A stretch of 64,000 bases of DNA from Escherichia coli (GCF_045037415.1 NZ_CP173439.1); one strand, 5' to 3'; positions 18,379 to 27,002 are shown, numbered from the stretch's first letter. Notes: generated by a model from the sequence alone, not told the origin. Numbers and translations are program-made.

Positions 18379-18864
18379 TCATCGCGCCGCCAGGCGCGCA
18401 AACGTGGCCTCTAACTCAGGCGGCTTACGCATACCCTGGTGTAGCTCCAGAACGCGTCCTTCGGAGTCAATCAGTACGGAGGTCGGCGTGCCGATCACCT
18501 GATAACGTTCCTGGGTAATGTTGAGCTGATCGCGCACCACCGGATAGGTTATCTGATGTTTTGCCAGCAGATCGTTGATCCTGACCGTTTCAGGGTCGGT
18601 ATTGACCGCCACAACCACCACTTTATCGCCCCATTTTTTGCTCAGCGCTTCCAGCGTGTCCATTTCCGCCAGGCACCCCCCGCATCCCGCAGACCAAAAA
18701 TTCAGGTACACCGCCTTTCCTTGCCAGCGTTCAAGGCCTGACTCCTGGCCTTGCAGATCAAACGCCGCCAGCGCCGGGGCCGGTGCCCCGACCGCCAGCT
18801 TTTCTTCTTTACACCCGCTTATCAGGATCGCCGCCGCGAGTAACAGCACATTATGCCAGCGCAT
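18379..18864 (-). CDS. Thioredoxin-like (TlpA/ResA-type) lipoprotein
   Basis: Lipobox ILISGC; thioredoxin-fold Cys pair in WSAGCGGC. Confidence 0.65.
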   Translation of the reverse strand: MRWHNVLLLAAAILISGCKEEKLAVGAPAPALAAFDLQGQESGLERWQGKAVYLNFWSAGCGGCLAEMDTLEALSKKWGDKVVVVAVNTDPETVRINDLLAKHQITYPVVRDQLNITQERYQVIGTPTSVLIDSEGRVLELHQGMRKPPELEATFARLAAR

Positions 18865-19546
18865 GTTGATTGGCCTCCTCACCCAGATATTTACCGTGTT
18901 GCAGCCGCAGAATACGGTCGGCAAACTGCCCAAGCGCAGGGTTGTGCGTCACCATCACAATCGTGCGCCCCTGACGATGCAGATCGGTGAGCAGATCCAG
19001 CACCCGCTGCTCATTCTCTTCATCCAGGTTGCCCGTCGGTTCATCCGCGAAAATAACCGGCGGTTCGTTGACCAGCGCCCGGGCGATACACACACGCTGC
19101 TGCTCACCACCGGAAAGCTGGCTCGGCAGGTGCGTCACACGATGCCCAAGCCCTACCTGTTCCAGCACCTTCCTCGCCGCCGCTTCATCCACCACGCTGT
19201 GGTAATGCTGGGCGAGCATGATGTTTTCCAGCGCAGTTAAGAACGGGATCAAATGGAACTGCTGAAATACCAGGCCGATTTTCTCGGCGCGAAAGCGACG
19301 GCGCCCCTCTTCATCCAGCGCGGCGGCATCGGTGCCATCAAGAAACACCTGCCCTTCCGTCGCCGTATCAAGGCACGTCAGAATATTCATCAGCGTGGTT
19401 TTACCAGAACCAGAAGCGCCCATAATGGCGACAAATTCACCCTGCGCAATGCGCAGATTAATGTCATCCAGGGCGGTAACGTCACCGAACCGTTTGTATA
19501 AGTGGCGGGTTTCGATCGCCACCTGAGGGATATGCGTAACGGACAT
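18851..19546 (-). CDS. ABC transporter ATP-binding protein (MacB/LolD-like)
   Basis: Walker [10 protein letters not shown], signature LSGGEQQR, Walker B IFADEPT. Confidence 0.85.
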
Positions 19547-19550
19547 GGCG

Positions 19551-20681
19551 CTACTCTCCTTTCAGCACTTTAGCAGGCTCGACGCTTACCGCGCGTCGCA
19601 CCGGAACAATCGCCGCCAGAATGGCGACCAGTAAAGACAACACCAGAGTAATGGGCAACACCGGCAGACGCAGTGAAATGGCGGCATTAAACACCGTTAA
19701 TCCCAACAGTTGCGCCAGCAAATATCCCAGCACCCAGCCGCACGCCACCGCCGCCAGCGCGATGATGCTGGTTTCCAGCAGAATTTGCCGCACGATATCG
19801 CCGTTGCTGGAACCAAGCGCTTTTTGCAGCGCAAACTCGTGCGCCCGCTCGCCGACAATCGCCATCAGCGTGGTATTCACGCACAGCGAAGAGAGCGCCA
19901 GAATCACGATCGAGACCAGTCCCATCAGACCTTTAATTTTATCCAGCACCTGCCCTTCGGAAGCAGAGACCTTACGCACCGGACGAATCTCCTGGTCAGG
20001 ATACTGCGCCTGCAACCGGCTGGCATAGTTCTCCACCTGGCCGACATCGTTACTGACGCTCAGCAAGCCGTGGCTGATTTTGCCCGGCTGATGCAGCCAG
20101 GCCTGCGCCACGTCGAGGCTGACGATCAGCATGTTGTCCGTCGCATCGCCAGACTCCACAATGCCTTTAATCTGCAAATTCTTACGCTGATTGTGATCCA
20201 CCAGCGTGATGCTGTCGCCCGGCTGCACGTTGAGGCGTTCCGCCAGTTTGACGCCGATCATCGCATTACGGTCGTCAAAACTGACGCCAATCCAGCTACC
20301 GGTGACCTGCCAGTACGGCACCAGTTTTTGCAGCGACTCGAACCACACGCCAACCATCACCACTTTTTCCAGCTCGGTACGCGCCATGCCGTACAACCAC
20401 GGACTGGCGCCATGCACCAGCCCCTGCGGCGCCTGATCGAGAATGCTCTGCAACTCCTGCTGCGGCATACTGGAACCGTGCCCCGGCCCGATGTAAAAAT
20501 TCGCGCCGAAGGTGCGCAGTTCTTCGCTCATTTTGGTGTTAATGTCGAACCAGACGGCAGAAAGCGCCGTCACGATGGTCGCCCCCACCATCAGCGCGGC
20601 AAACACCACGCTGACCCGCTGAAAACGCAGACGCAGCGCCCGCCACACCAGCAGCCAGAGCATGGTACGTTTAGCGGCCAT
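19551..20681 (-). CDS. ABC transporter permease (FtsX-like)
   Basis: N-terminal TM, large periplasmic loop, C-terminal FtsX-like TM bundle; start uncertain. Confidence 0.7.
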   Translation of the reverse strand: MAAKRTMLWLLVWRALRLRFQRVSVVFAALMVGATIVTALSAVWFDINTKMSEELRTFGANFYIGPGHGSSMPQQELQSILDQAPQGLVHGASPWLYGMARTELEKVVMVGVWFESLQKLVPYWQVTGSWIGVSFDDRNAMIGVKLAERLNVQPGDSITLVDHNQRKNLQIKGIVESGDATDNMLIVSLDVAQAWLHQPGKISHGLLSVSNDVGQVENYASRLQAQYPDQEIRPVRKVSASEGQVLDKIKGLMGLVSIVILALSSLCVNTTLMAIVGERAHEFALQKALGSSNGDIVRQILLETSIIALAAVACGWVLGYLLAQLLGLTVFNAAISLRLPVLPITLVLSLLVAILAAIVPVRRAVSVEPAKVLKGE

Positions 20682-25954: not shown

Positions 25955-25970
25955 ACCGCCAAAGAATACA

Positions 25971-25988
25971 AATGATAATTATTATCAT
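25971..25988. promoter_or_regulatory. Fur box upstream of the Ftr1/P19 operon
   Basis: AATGATAATTATTATCAT, 17-35 bp upstream of the permease start. Confidence 0.55.
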
Positions 25989-26240
25989 ATCTTTTTGTCG
26001 CGTTGTACATGACCTGGATCATAAAAATGTCAGCAGACGACAAGTTATGTAAACTTATTTCATCAAATCGTGATGAACACACACATTATGCGTTGATAAA
26101 AGGGACGTTATCTCCCTGTTTTTCTCATGGAATTAACGGCAAGGCAGGCGCGGTAACAGAGGAATAAATCCCCCTGCCGACAGTGATATTATTCATTATC
26201 GGCAGGCAGAAATAAAACGCGTTATTGCGTACAGCAATAT

Positions 26241-27002
26241 TCAAAGATTAAGGTTATTTCGATCGCTGGCAAGACGCTGTAAGAATTGACCATATCCCTG
26301 CGGCCCCATCCAGTAGTTAATACTTTTCTCAACGCCGGTTGATGTCAACGTCGCACCGGAAATACCGTCAACGGTATATTCATCGGCATGTTCAGGTTTA
26401 TCCTGTACTATTTTCAATGCAGGATGTCCGCTGTTATCTAATAATCGTTTCCCTGGCCACTGTTTGCGCCAGTTGGCGTCTTCCACCCTAGCCCCCAGAA
26501 ACGGCGTTTCCCGTTGCTGATAATAATACAGATTTCTCACCGTACGACCGTCCAGCCCCAGAGCAAGAAACGCATGCATCATGGATTTCGCGCCCTTACC
26601 GGTAACTGGAATGATAACCTGCTGAATTTCATTATTTTTATCTTTCACAAAGAACACATCCGCCACCGTACAGCGCTGACGAACCTGCGCTGGGTCGCGT
26701 TCAGGGGCAAGTTTTTCACACTTCTGCCGCGCGGTGTCCGCGCTGCTGCCAGCCACCAGTTCGCCGGAATCTAAATTAACATGGCGTTGAATAATATAAC
26801 GATGATAGAGCGTTTCGACTGATTTTTTATCCTGGGTCTCTGATTTCATCAGGCCCGCAGCGTGTAAAATTGCCGCCTGTTTTTCCTCCTCTGTCGGCTC
26901 CGTCATTTCTCCCTGGAACAGCATAAACCATGCCGCCGCCGCAACAAAAATAAGGACACAAAGCACCATCATTGATGCAACAATAATTTTACCCTTGCGC
27001 AT
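26241..27002 (-). CDS. FMN-binding-domain protein (NqrC/RnfG-like), membrane-anchored
   Basis: N-terminal TM anchor; flavinylation-type motif VDGISGATLTSTGV. Confidence 0.6.
   Translation of the reverse strand: MRKGKIIVASMMVLCVLIFVAAAAWFMLFQGEMTEPTEEEKQAAILHAAGLMKSETQDKKSVETLYHRYIIQRHVNLDSGELVAGSSADTARQKCEKLAPERDPAQVRQRCTVADVFFVKDKNNEIQQVIIPVTGKGAKSMMHAFLALGLDGRTVRNLYYYQQRETPFLGARVEDANWRKQWPGKRLLDNSGHPALKIVQDKPEHADEYTVDGISGATLTSTGVEKSINYWMGPQGYGQFLQRLASDRNNLNL

Follow-up and report, generated by a model that had tools for sequence, protein, structure and literature searches.

The minus-strand operon of seven genes at 18379-25948 is FetMP-Fls (FetMP-FetABCDE), a known system of iron uptake that is plasmid-borne in pathogenic E. 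coli. The system is already characterised, and the sole fresh point is its neighbour, a stand-alone gene for an NqrC-like flavin-binding protein kept beside the system in one enterobacterial group. We take this protein to be an accessory of the iron system that is specific to one lineage, probably a periplasmic electron relay. The overall explanation, which we regard as likely, is a captured FetMP-Fls segment accompanied by an NqrC paralogue that serves as an accessory relay and is flavinylated by the ApbE of the host. The features located in the window, i.e. the whole 64,000-nt stretch of DNA that was analysed, are collected in Table 1. Every element listed by an earlier sequence-only reading of this DNA is present where it had been placed, with all open reading frames on the minus strand.

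Table 1. Features of the FetMP-Fls locus and its surroundings, in window coordinates.
Feature	Coordinates	Strand	Description
flsF	17115..17747	-	Histidine-type phosphatase gene, truncated by ISKpn26; RefSeq annotation of identical plasmid
flsE	17869..18354	-	161-aa hypothetical protein; travels with Citrobacter-type locus only
flsT (fetE-like)	18379..18864	-	TlpA/ResA-type thioredoxin lipoprotein; ResA model 8e-27
flsC (fetD)	18851..19546	-	LolD/FtsE/MacB-type ABC ATPase; NCBIfam LolD 208.7 bits, FtsE 209 bits
flsB (fetC)	19551..20681	-	Second FtsX/MacB-type permease; NCBIfam LolC/E matches; start as in RefSeq
flsA (fetB)	20671..21954	-	FtsX/MacB-type permease; NCBIfam LolC/E, MacB, FtsX matches
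flsD (fetA)	21957..23336	-	Polytopic membrane protein; periplasmic 5-Cys FtrD-like (DUF2318) domain and YHS domain
GC-rich stem-loop	23392..23429	-	fetP-flsD intergenic region; without U-tract
fetP	23440..23970	-	Periplasmic P19-type iron-binding protein, encoded directly after the permease
fetM	24008..25948	-	Ftr1/ILT-family iron permease: signal peptide, large periplasmic N-domain, C-terminal permease domain
Putative Fur box	25968..25992	.	Overlaps -10 region; 20-44 nt upstream of fetM start
Candidate FNR/CRP-type site	26009..26022	.	TGA-N6-TCA dyad ATGATCCAGGTCAT; about 30 nt upstream of Fur box
Second terminator-like hairpin after NqrC-like gene	26101-26117		Terminator scan
Hairpin after NqrC-like gene	26173..26206	-	CCTGCCGA...TCGGCAGG then GGGATTTATT; read from sequence and terminator scan
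Orphan NqrC-like gene	26241..27002	-	One N-terminal membrane helix and periplasmic FMN-binding domain; predicted flavinylation at Thr218
Intrinsic-terminator-like hairpin	27215..27234	-	scsD/NqrC-like gene interval; 8-bp stem, 6 GC pairs, then TTTTTT
scsD	27239..27745	-	Membrane-anchored thioredoxin-like protein (CGIC); passenger gene, outside iron system
scsC 3' remnant (DsbA-like)	27735..27905	-	Without CxxC active site; incomplete in RefSeq

FetMP-type systems were studied earlier in E. coli F11, Salmonella pUO-StVR2, Yersinia pestis and Campylobacter jejuni. The gene order found here (permease, P19, DUF2318 protein, two FtsX-type permeases, ATPase, thioredoxin) is the same in 80 species loci, and the operon first described is borne out: an Ftr1/P19 set preceded by a Fur box, with two FtsX-type permeases, an ABC ATPase, a thioredoxin-like lipoprotein and a Cys-rich/YHS membrane protein, the last of which has a DUF2318 domain. 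The FetM of the window matches PF03239 FTR1 (7.5e-43) and carries two REXXE motifs, REGLE at residue 389 and REGAE at 507. Its start is most likely GTG 25948 (646 aa), which aligns with the ATG/GTG starts of orthologues; with the RefSeq start at 25894 the signal peptide is lost. FetP, the periplasmic copper/iron-binding protein, matches PF10634 (7e-70), and over residues 26-176, the mature protein, its identity with the FetP of E. coli F11 solved by crystallography (PDB 3NRP/3NRQ) is 100%. FlsD combines an FtrD-like domain (PF10080, 3.5e-28) with a YHS domain (PF04945, 9.8e-17), and its residues 336-371 read CLLC-x13-CVAC-x14-C, that is, the CxxC-x13-CxxC-x14-C motif reported in PMC6083913. 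FlsABC belongs to the type VII (MacB/LolCDE-like) ABC systems, as seen from LolC/E, MacB and LolD NCBIfam matches and from MacB_PCD and FtsX Pfam domains found on 87-95% identical orthologues of the permeases FlsA and FlsB, those of FlsA being 87-92% identical. FlsT has a lipobox (LISGC) and a CGGC motif, and its best PDB matches are ResA structures. FlsD would service the redox step at FetP together with FlsABC, a machine of the LolCDE/MacB type, and FlsT, the thioredoxin lipoprotein.

The locus is the same as that of E. coli F11 FetMP and Salmonella pUO-StVR2 FetMP-Fls, the core being without differences (PMC7285068; PDB 3NRP/3NRQ). Shared are the order fetM-fetP-flsD-flsA-flsB-flsC-flsT-flsE-flsF, a putative Fur box and insertion sequences at the bounds; flsF, a name given in PMC7285068, is cut by ISKpn26 here. 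The same study reports that deletion of fetMP-flsDA from the Salmonella plasmid locus gives fivefold less cell iron and poorer growth in low iron (PMC7285068). The C. jejuni FetMP-FetABCDEF system (Cj1658-1665; PMC6083913, PMC10783030) shares the seven-gene architecture, a Fur box just upstream and the DUF2318 motif CxxC-x13-CxxC-x14/15-C (PMC6083913), and its fet deletions cause low-iron growth defects (PMC6083913, PMC10783030). However, its thioredoxins number two (FetE, FetF), an FMN-protein is lacking, and its proteins are only 27-57% identical by the figures in PMC7285068.

The flsD-fetP-fetM stretch occurs in 843 plasmids, with at least 99% identity in 836. FetMP-Fls DNA is present in 830 of the 5,426 complete E. 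coli genomes, at 857 plasmid and 9 chromosomal places, and an identical gene array is listed for pRS218/pUTI89 (PMC4155114). The system sits on an ~11-kb piece of enterobacterial chromosome (about 17.0-27.96 kb) that IncF plasmids of the pUTI89/pRS218 type most likely acquired between insertion sequences. Its left edge is marked by the truncated flsF. An flsE orthologue (73-78% identical) follows flsT in Citrobacter and is absent elsewhere; against Pfam, FlsE gives only sub-threshold hints of a helix-turn-helix.

In the promoter region of fetM, the Fur consensus GATAATGATAATCATTATC is matched at 15/19 positions at 25968-25986, with overlapping 14/19 matches through 25992; in shuffled windows, matches of 14/19 or better come up about 1.2 times per 64 kb. 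Together these matches enclose the Fur box first proposed at 25971-25988, whose position is kept in diverged loci: it lies inside a ~100-bp promoter block conserved across diverged relatives, and where the 5' end of fetM is intact, Enterobacterales loci have Fur boxes (13-18/19) at the same distance. Promoter-like hexamers are found at 26009-25981 and 26001-25972. Work cited in PMC6083913 and PMC7285068 reports Fur binding and Fur-dependent iron regulation in E. coli F11 and C. jejuni. In almost every Enterobacterales locus the TGA-N6-TCA dyad lies 71-81 nt upstream of fetM, and in two Yersinia species it agrees perfectly with the FNR consensus.

The NqrC-like gene most likely starts at ATG 27002 (253 aa), in agreement with the end coordinate of the sequence-only reading. 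Its product matches PF04205 (9e-11), scores 395.9 bits against the NCBIfam NqrC model NF003747 (cut-off 336) and aligns over its full length with V. cholerae NqrC (2e-50; PDB 7XK3, 4U9S). The topology prediction, a single N-terminal hydrophobic helix after R2, K3 and K5, is the same as for NqrC and puts the FMN domain outside the cytoplasm; the helix would thereby anchor the protein with its FMN domain facing the periplasm. The flavinylated Ser/Thr context, on which the original assignment had been staked, is kept: T218, within an SGAT motif, stands opposite the flavinylated Thr225 of V. cholerae NqrC, and the motif D-G-I-S-G-A-T218 is invariant in 12 NqrC-like family members. The family also has two conserved cysteines and a 7-residue deletion, both without counterpart in true NqrC. 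The gene is under purifying selection (dN/dS 0.14-0.18), and no other member of the block evolves as fast as this protein (50-76% identity versus 82-98% for the core). As had been remarked earlier, no flavin transferase is visible in the window, which holds no ApbE homologue (best tblastn E = 0.21). The suggested search beyond the window located apbE/ftp on the chromosome in 5,421 of 5,426 complete E. coli genomes; the missing transferase is irrelevant because apbE belongs to the chromosomal core of E. coli. The chromosomal ApbE of the host would flavinylate the NqrC-like protein at Thr218.

One FetMP sub-lineage (Citrobacter, Klebsiella, Raoultella, Phytobacter, Superficieibacter, Sodalis) appears to have acquired the NqrC paralogue, which could act as an auxiliary one-electron relay from a membrane donor (FlsD or a host complex) to FetP-bound iron. 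That an Enterobacteriaceae lineage repurposed NqrC as a dedicated ApbE-flavinylated periplasmic relay for FetMP, beside the thioredoxin route and not replacing it, is a tentative proposal, held with slightly more doubt than belief. The "ferric reductase" role that had been suggested for the FMN-protein remains an inference. There is precedent in P19 clusters with FMN-binding proteins: in Actinobacteria, Firmicutes and Spirochaetes, an ApbE-type flavinylated extracytoplasmic protein is tied to P19/Ftr1 as a proposed redox partner (PMC6083913, PMC8238504). By the published description, the FMN-protein of those Gram-positive and spirochaete clusters replaces the thioredoxin as the seventh operon gene, whereas the present locus retains its thioredoxin, and the FMN-protein, an NqrC derivative of full length, is encoded upstream in its own transcription unit. 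If the proposal is true, virulence plasmids of the pUTI89/pRS218 type carry a relay module in about 15% of the E. coli sequenced to completion, the "NqrC" label is functionally mistaken for hundreds of genes on E. coli plasmids, and the redox step of P19/Ftr1 iron uptake becomes open to simple genetics in E. coli.

Electrons might instead flow in the opposite direction, with Fe2+ oxidised at the FetP copper site and flavin, Cys or Fe-S modules passing electrons to the membrane, as in yeast Fet3-Ftr1 and bacterial FtrABCD. The Pfam name of the FlsD domain is now "FtrD-like", and the FtrA-P19 proteins are close structural relatives of FetP. The conserved candidate FNR-type site would suit an Fe2+ substrate under low oxygen, and the C. 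jejuni FetE/F are reported as more oxidase-like, the cluster raising oxidative-stress sensitivity (PMC10783030). However, the present locus lacks a gene for an FtrB-like cupredoxin. A reductive role is also preferred by Liu et al. and Meheust et al. (PMC6083913, PMC8238504), and we consider electron flow towards the membrane somewhat unlikely. FtrABCD of Bordetella and Brucella resembles the present system in its P19-type periplasmic component, its permease of the Ftr1 type and its membrane-bound redox protein, FtrD; it differs in having the cupredoxin FtrB, in FtrD being a polyferredoxin, and in doing without an FtsX-type ABC machine, thioredoxin or FMN-protein.

The proposed link between the FMN-protein and the permease gains support from synteny kept across unrelated flanks. 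The NqrC-like gene immediately precedes fetM on the same strand in 8/8 contexts (family members of at least 46% identity), while the flanks differ (scsABCD, Ldh_2, pldA/recQ, ROK/MFS, IS605), with at least five unrelated chromosomal flanks. It is found in 18 of the 80 FetP-bearing (FetMP-Fls) species, always directly upstream of fetM, and is missing from the other 62. The available parts of the published FetMP-Fls descriptions do not treat this upstream gene as part of the system. It is probably a transcription unit separate from fetM, with terminators between them, and orthologous loci have clear intrinsic terminators at the position after it. Synteny within one clade is partly common descent.

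A separate unit with terminators on its flanks would also fit an unrelated neighbour, inserted once upstream of an ancestral fetM and co-inherited without any part in iron uptake. The gene is confined to a single FetM sub-clade (78-91% identity), and in most lineages it has no Fur box of its own, the best matches on the plasmid and in Citrobacter (11-13 of 19) being unconvincing. It is also dispensable for the effect of the cloned system: a 5,566-bp fetMP-flsDA fragment without the NqrC-like gene improves low-iron growth of S. Typhimurium ATCC 14028 (PMC7285068). Such a bystander is nevertheless unlikely, given that its adjacency to fetM outlived plasmid transfer and at least five neighbourhood changes in which scs genes, flsE and flsF were lost. 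Purifying selection, a 17/19 Fur box upstream of the gene in the K. oxytoca lineage and the independent precedent of the Gram-positive P19 clusters (PMC6083913, PMC8238504) point the same way. For the accessory we favour, the NqrC-like gene would be transcribed separately and be dispensable for basal function. The protein is not essential: 62 of 80 species do without the gene, the clone works without it and FetMP alone is reported as functional in E. coli F11, and the NqrC-like protein therefore modulates at most.

Upstream in the same orientation lies the thioredoxin pair that the sequence-only reading had counted with the operon. The genes are present but stand outside the system, being scsD and an scsC stub left from an scsABCD copper-tolerance operon, known from Salmonella and Citrobacter, of which the two are orthologues of the last two genes and only the 3' end survives here. 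ScsD is 69-76% identical to the fourth gene product of the complete scsABCD-type cluster in Citrobacter, and the remnant, the last ~55 codons of scsC, aligns only with the ~55 C-terminal residues of Citrobacter ScsC; the catalytic, CxxC-bearing part of scsC is missing, as are scsA and scsB. The shared orientation, the proximity and the use of thioredoxin-like proteins by the core system would suit a working part of iron uptake. This is very improbable in view of the stub without CxxC, the terminator after scsD, the complete cluster in Citrobacter and the absence of the pair beside the system in Klebsiella, Raoultella, Superficieibacter, Phytobacter and Sodalis.

E. coli is not known to have a Na+-NQR. 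That the NqrC-like protein is a genuine subunit C of this complex ("Na+ translocation"), as in RefSeq and the pRS218 paper (entered as NqrC subunit in PMC4155114), is scarcely credible despite a score above the curated NF003747 cut-off and an end-to-end alignment with V. cholerae NqrC, since nqrA, B, D, E and F are not adjacent in the annotated identical plasmid or in any of the eight family contexts, fetM is the neighbour instead, true NqrC relatives are about 31-36% identical and located in nqr operons (the 31%-identical one among them), and the two family cysteines and the shortened loop set it apart.

Within the operon, the 13-bp-stem hairpin that had been noticed between the P19 gene and the next is real by folding against shuffles: it forms 16 pairs, 13 of them uninterrupted Watson-Crick, at -38 kcal/mol (z = -7.4), and none of 200 shuffles folds as well. 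It differs from a Rho-independent terminator in that the stem is followed by CAGACCGATCAT and not by a U-tract; the terminator scan made no call, and a search of Rfam gave no match. The stem-loop most likely uncouples fetMP from fls levels, which it could do through read-through attenuation or through stabilisation of the upstream mRNA. C. jejuni likewise has a structured spacer of about 80-100 nt from fetP to fetA, and among relatives the fetP-flsD spacers are structured in most cases (z < -2 in 58 of 81 distinct spacers) with no conservation of sequence.

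The operon that follows the NqrC-like gene is a published iron-uptake system of extraintestinal pathogenic Escherichia coli, Salmonella, Yersinia and Campylobacter, and it is itself not new, since the gene array is in print, its FetP has been crystallised and the locus and its homologues have been studied functionally. The gene table of pRS218/pUTI89 lists the same array, including "NqrC", scsC/scsD, a hypothetical protein and a phosphatase (PMC4155114). The mature FetP of the window matches, at every residue, the FetP of uropathogenic E. coli F11 whose crystal structure is known (PDB 3NRP/3NRQ). 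On the Salmonella plasmid pUO-StVR2, where the locus was studied under the name FetMP-Fls, deletion of fetMP-flsDA lowers cell iron about fivefold and impairs growth, invasion and intramacrophage replication (PMC7285068). [quoted passage not shown] The residual interest of the locus is an NqrC-derived accessory and a conserved FNR-type site; the system itself is known.

All the ORFs listed by the sequence-only reading, which proposed an Ftr1/P19-type iron operon, are found on the minus strand, and domain searches with the proteins encoded in the window agree with its labels. Its observation is confirmed, and its interpretation partly supported. FetM (646 aa) matches FTR1 (PF03239, 7.5e-43) and carries two REXXE motifs, REGLE at residue 389 and REGAE at 507. 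FetP (176 aa) belongs to the P19/FetP family (PF10634, 7e-70). FlsD, a 459-aa membrane protein, combines an FtrD-like (DUF2318) domain (3.5e-28) with YHS (9.8e-17), and its CxxC-x13-CxxC-x14-C arrangement is exactly the motif described for C. jejuni FetA (PMC6083913). The permeases FlsA and FlsB match LolC/E, MacB and FtsX models, the ATPase FlsC matches LolD and FtsE models, and FlsT, encoded by the last gene, is a ResA/TlpA match with a lipobox and a CGGC motif. The predicted folds of the NqrC-like protein and FetP are settled by homology to proteins of known structure, NqrC and FetP. The RefSeq starts of fetM and the NqrC-like gene look wrong when orthologues are aligned: the fetM start at 25894 would drop the signal peptide, and orthologues favour GTG 25948 (window 25894-25954), while GTG 27056 gives the NqrC-like protein 18 extra residues that orthologues do not have. 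The conserved ATG 27002 yields a protein of 253 aa with a single N-terminal helix and the SGAT motif at S215-T218.

Coordinates of the locus and of other predicted iron-responsive features in the window
Feature	Position	Description
Fur box	7817-7835	16/19; 82 nt upstream of a ChaN-family lipoprotein gene
Captured segment	~17.0-27.96 kb	chromosomal fragment of a Citrobacter-like donor
flsF	17115-17747	histidine phosphatase gene, cut by ISKpn26
flsE	17869-18354	161-aa protein; found with the locus in Citrobacter and on the plasmid, not elsewhere
FetMP-Fls operon	18379-25948	fetM-fetP-flsD-flsA-flsB-flsC-flsT, minus strand
fetP-flsD stem-loop	23392-23429	-38 kcal/mol, z = -7.4
Fur box, fetM promoter	25968-25986	15/19; overlapping 14/19 matches to 25992
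Possible -10 element	25986-25981	GATAAT
TGA-N6-TCA dyad	26009-26022	ATGATCCAGGTCAT (minus-strand sequence), ~30 nt upstream of the Fur box
NqrC-like gene	26241-27002	minus strand, directly upstream of fetM
Fur box	59115-59133	17/19; upstream of the HlyD-family adaptor gene
HlyD-family adaptor	59435-60709	
ABC exporter	60684-62798	peptidase-containing
Fur box	63536-63560	16/19

The NqrC-like gene is tied to fetM rather than to any wider neighbourhood. Protein searches recover its family at 46-90% identity in Citrobacter, Klebsiella, Raoultella, Superficieibacter, Sodalis and others, and the next relative outside the family (31% identity) is a true NqrC within an nqr operon. In 8/8 family context look-ups the gene immediately precedes fetM in the same orientation, with flanks that vary from scsABCD (Citrobacter) through Ldh_2/molybdopterin genes (Klebsiella) and pldA...recQ (Superficieibacter) to ROK/MFS genes or an IS605 remnant in further lineages. 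Near one-to-one co-occurrence of fetMP and the NqrC-like gene on plasmids was set aside as linkage evidence, as those copies are more than 99% identical and represent one clone; diverged chromosomal loci were used for the linkage test instead. Among the 80 loci returned by a FetP scan with one genome per species, 18 include the NqrC-like gene, invariably ~1 kb ahead of where fetM begins. In the remaining 62 (Atlantibacter, Entomohabitans, Serratia, Pectobacterium, Brenneria, Yersinia, Budvicia and Pasteurellaceae) the seven-gene operon is present but this gene is not, a pattern that makes it the marker of a single FetM sub-clade (78-91% identity to the window FetM). The gene is under purifying selection, weaker than that on the core genes (dN/dS 0.14-0.18 against Citrobacter and Klebsiella-type orthologues; core genes 0.01-0.16). 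Terminator-like hairpins lie 3' of it in every lineage and a terminator lies 5' of it on the plasmid, so it forms its own transcription unit. On the plasmid, its upstream region contains only a Fur half-site, TGATAATGG (best 19-mer <13/19), and the Citrobacter upstream regions have no Fur box above 13/19. A 17/19 box, GATAACGATAATAATTATC, is found 74 nt upstream of its start only in the K. oxytoca lineage (L005/L023). The shortened match in Sodalis endolongispinus (L036) is alone as a possible real pseudogene.

The encoded protein aligns over its full length with V. cholerae NqrC (2e-50; residues 15-263 against 4-252 of 257) and scores above the cut-off of the NCBIfam NqrC model NF003747. The sequence-only reading would have lost its flavoprotein had the modified residue been missing; VDGISGATLTS aligns with VDGLSGATLTS of V. 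cholerae NqrC, which carries FMN on Thr225, and the Thr of SGAT is kept. The fetM-linked family has a shortened loop compared with true NqrC, and C95 and C111, 16 residues apart and beside a 7-residue deletion, are conserved in the family and missing in true NqrC. This pair may form a periplasmic disulfide, either structural or redox-active. As the sequence-only reading had noted, the window shows no flavin transferase: a tblastn search with E. coli ApbE finds none in cis, either there or in 90 related loci. Beyond the window, where that reading had suggested looking, apbE is chromosomal in 5,421/5,426 complete E. coli genomes (in K-12, ftp/apbE adjoins ompC), and this core gene supplies the transferase in trans.

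The analysis shows the parts list, the homologies, the conserved promoter architecture and the conserved synteny, and phenotypes are published; the mechanism is inferred. Fur derepression, possibly combined with FNR-type activation, would drive fetMP-flsDABCT. FetP would take iron at a copper-assisted site and hand it to FetM, and FlsD, the LolCDE/MacB-like FlsABC machine and the lipoprotein thioredoxin FlsT would serve redox chemistry. In the NqrC-bearing sub-clade, a membrane-anchored, ApbE-flavinylated NqrC paralogue could add a flavin-based electron path; for electron flow in FetMP, both ferric reduction and ferrous oxidation are conceivable. The redox change of iron in P19/Ftr1 systems, and the source or sink of the electrons, is still an open question (PMC10783030). 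A cloned fetMP-flsDA fragment functions without the NqrC-like gene (PMC7285068), which is thus at most a modulator. A flavoprotein gene that stays beside fetM through every change of neighbourhood is a concrete and easily deleted candidate for the redox step, and E. coli, with ApbE in trans, is a tractable host for it. No paper joining NqrC with FetM, an iron permease or IncF was found in the literature search; on pRS218 the gene is listed merely as "Na+ translocation" (PMC4155114). This label, like "Na+-translocating NADH-quinone reductase subunit C", is probably misleading on more than 800 plasmids. Gram-positive P19 clusters were sought by FetP protein search, and the 120 matches listed are all close Gram-negative relatives. 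On a metagenome contig that also carries a genuine nqr operon, a PepSY_TM protein adjoins a small FMN_bind protein (L009, 6811-8025), the layout of the PepSY-like flavinylated iron reductases of PMC8238504.

The fetM promoter is conserved where its surroundings are not. Upstream regions of the plasmid, Citrobacter, a K. oxytoca-like lineage, a 47%-identity lineage and Superficieibacter align over a ~100-bp block within otherwise unalignable spacers; at its 5' edge, the copy on the plasmid lacks 4 nt. The Fur box that the sequence-only reading placed ahead of fetM lies inside this block and is borne out by its match and by its kept position in diverged promoters, while shuffled sequence gives ~1.2 matches of at least 14/19 per 64 kb. 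The Citrobacter and Superficieibacter boxes reach 18/19. Wherever an Enterobacterales locus keeps an intact fetM 5' end, its best box scores 13-18/19, and in most of these loci it lies 14-28 nt ahead of the inferred start codon. Promoter-like hexamers overlap the predicted Fur site, a classic repression layout. The TGA-N6-TCA dyad occupies the same position in nearly all Enterobacterales fetM promoters (L002-L090), and in Yersinia thracica and Y. similis it matches the FNR consensus, TTGAT-N4-ATCAA, perfectly. Given this conservation and a centre near -41.5 (if GATAAT is the -10 element), the putative FNR-type dyad suggests that fetM, like feo, is under dual control and responds to low oxygen as well as low iron; a literature search found no paper on FNR-type control of this promoter. 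Such tuning to low oxygen besides low iron would bear on gut and bladder niches.

The predicted hairpin between fetP and flsD folds strongly. It has no U-tract, and it is therefore more likely an mRNA-stabilising or attenuating structure than a full terminator. The spacer is conserved as a structural property rather than in sequence: 58 of 81 distinct related-locus spacers have z < -2 against dinucleotide shuffles (median z -3.06). Neither the hairpin nor the leaders match a family in an Rfam search of 17000-28500 (E <= 1). The C. jejuni spacer is 82 nt long, and its authors suspected a regulatory element there (PMC10783030). In K. oxytoca- and K. indica-type loci (L005, L023, L026), a 225-262-nt insert replaces the simple hairpin. 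This insert, e.g. L005 13555-13816, is very strongly structured (down to -102 kcal/mol) and may be a repeat or mobile element.

The locus reached the plasmid as a chromosomal fragment of a Citrobacter-like donor trapped between insertion sequences, as indicated by a Citrobacter-type scs remnant with IS110 and IS26 on one side and flsF cut by ISKpn26 on the other. The Citrobacter NqrC-like gene follows a four-gene cluster of scsABCD architecture (a small protein, DsbD-like ScsB, DsbA-like ScsC and a 168-aa ScsD). The plasmid ScsD is 69-76% identical to its counterpart; ScsC is down to its last ~55 residues, lacks the CPYC motif and is marked incomplete in RefSeq, and past this piece follow an IS110 fragment and then IS26. 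The scs genes are missing beside the iron system in other genera, and the "thioredoxin pair" (scsD plus the scsC remnant) that the sequence-only reading had counted as part of the system consists of passengers. These "copper" genes beside the NqrC-like gene are an operon remnant. Pfam gives just sub-threshold helix-turn-helix hints for flsE. In L008 (GCA_008925805.1) and L014, nearly all genes of the locus are fragmented, more likely through assembly or frameshift error than genuine decay.

A 10.2-kb stretch is 100% identical in pVR50B, pCE10-type plasmids and hundreds more IncF plasmids. The flsD-fetP-fetM stretch is found in 843 plasmid records (836 at >=99% identity). Of 5,426 complete E. 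coli genomes, 830 carry it, with 857 plasmid and 9 chromosomal sites. A reading of 2,294 plasmid matches as many diverged fetMP copies was rejected, the surplus being due to other parts of the query.

Elsewhere in the window, a ChaN-family lipoprotein gene behind a Fur box heads a cjrABC-type TonB/TonB-dependent-receptor cluster with senB behind it, which makes a second predicted iron-regulated locus. Two more boxes lie near the window's end, and the HlyD-family adaptor and ABC exporter behind the first of them look like a colicin V/microcin export pair.
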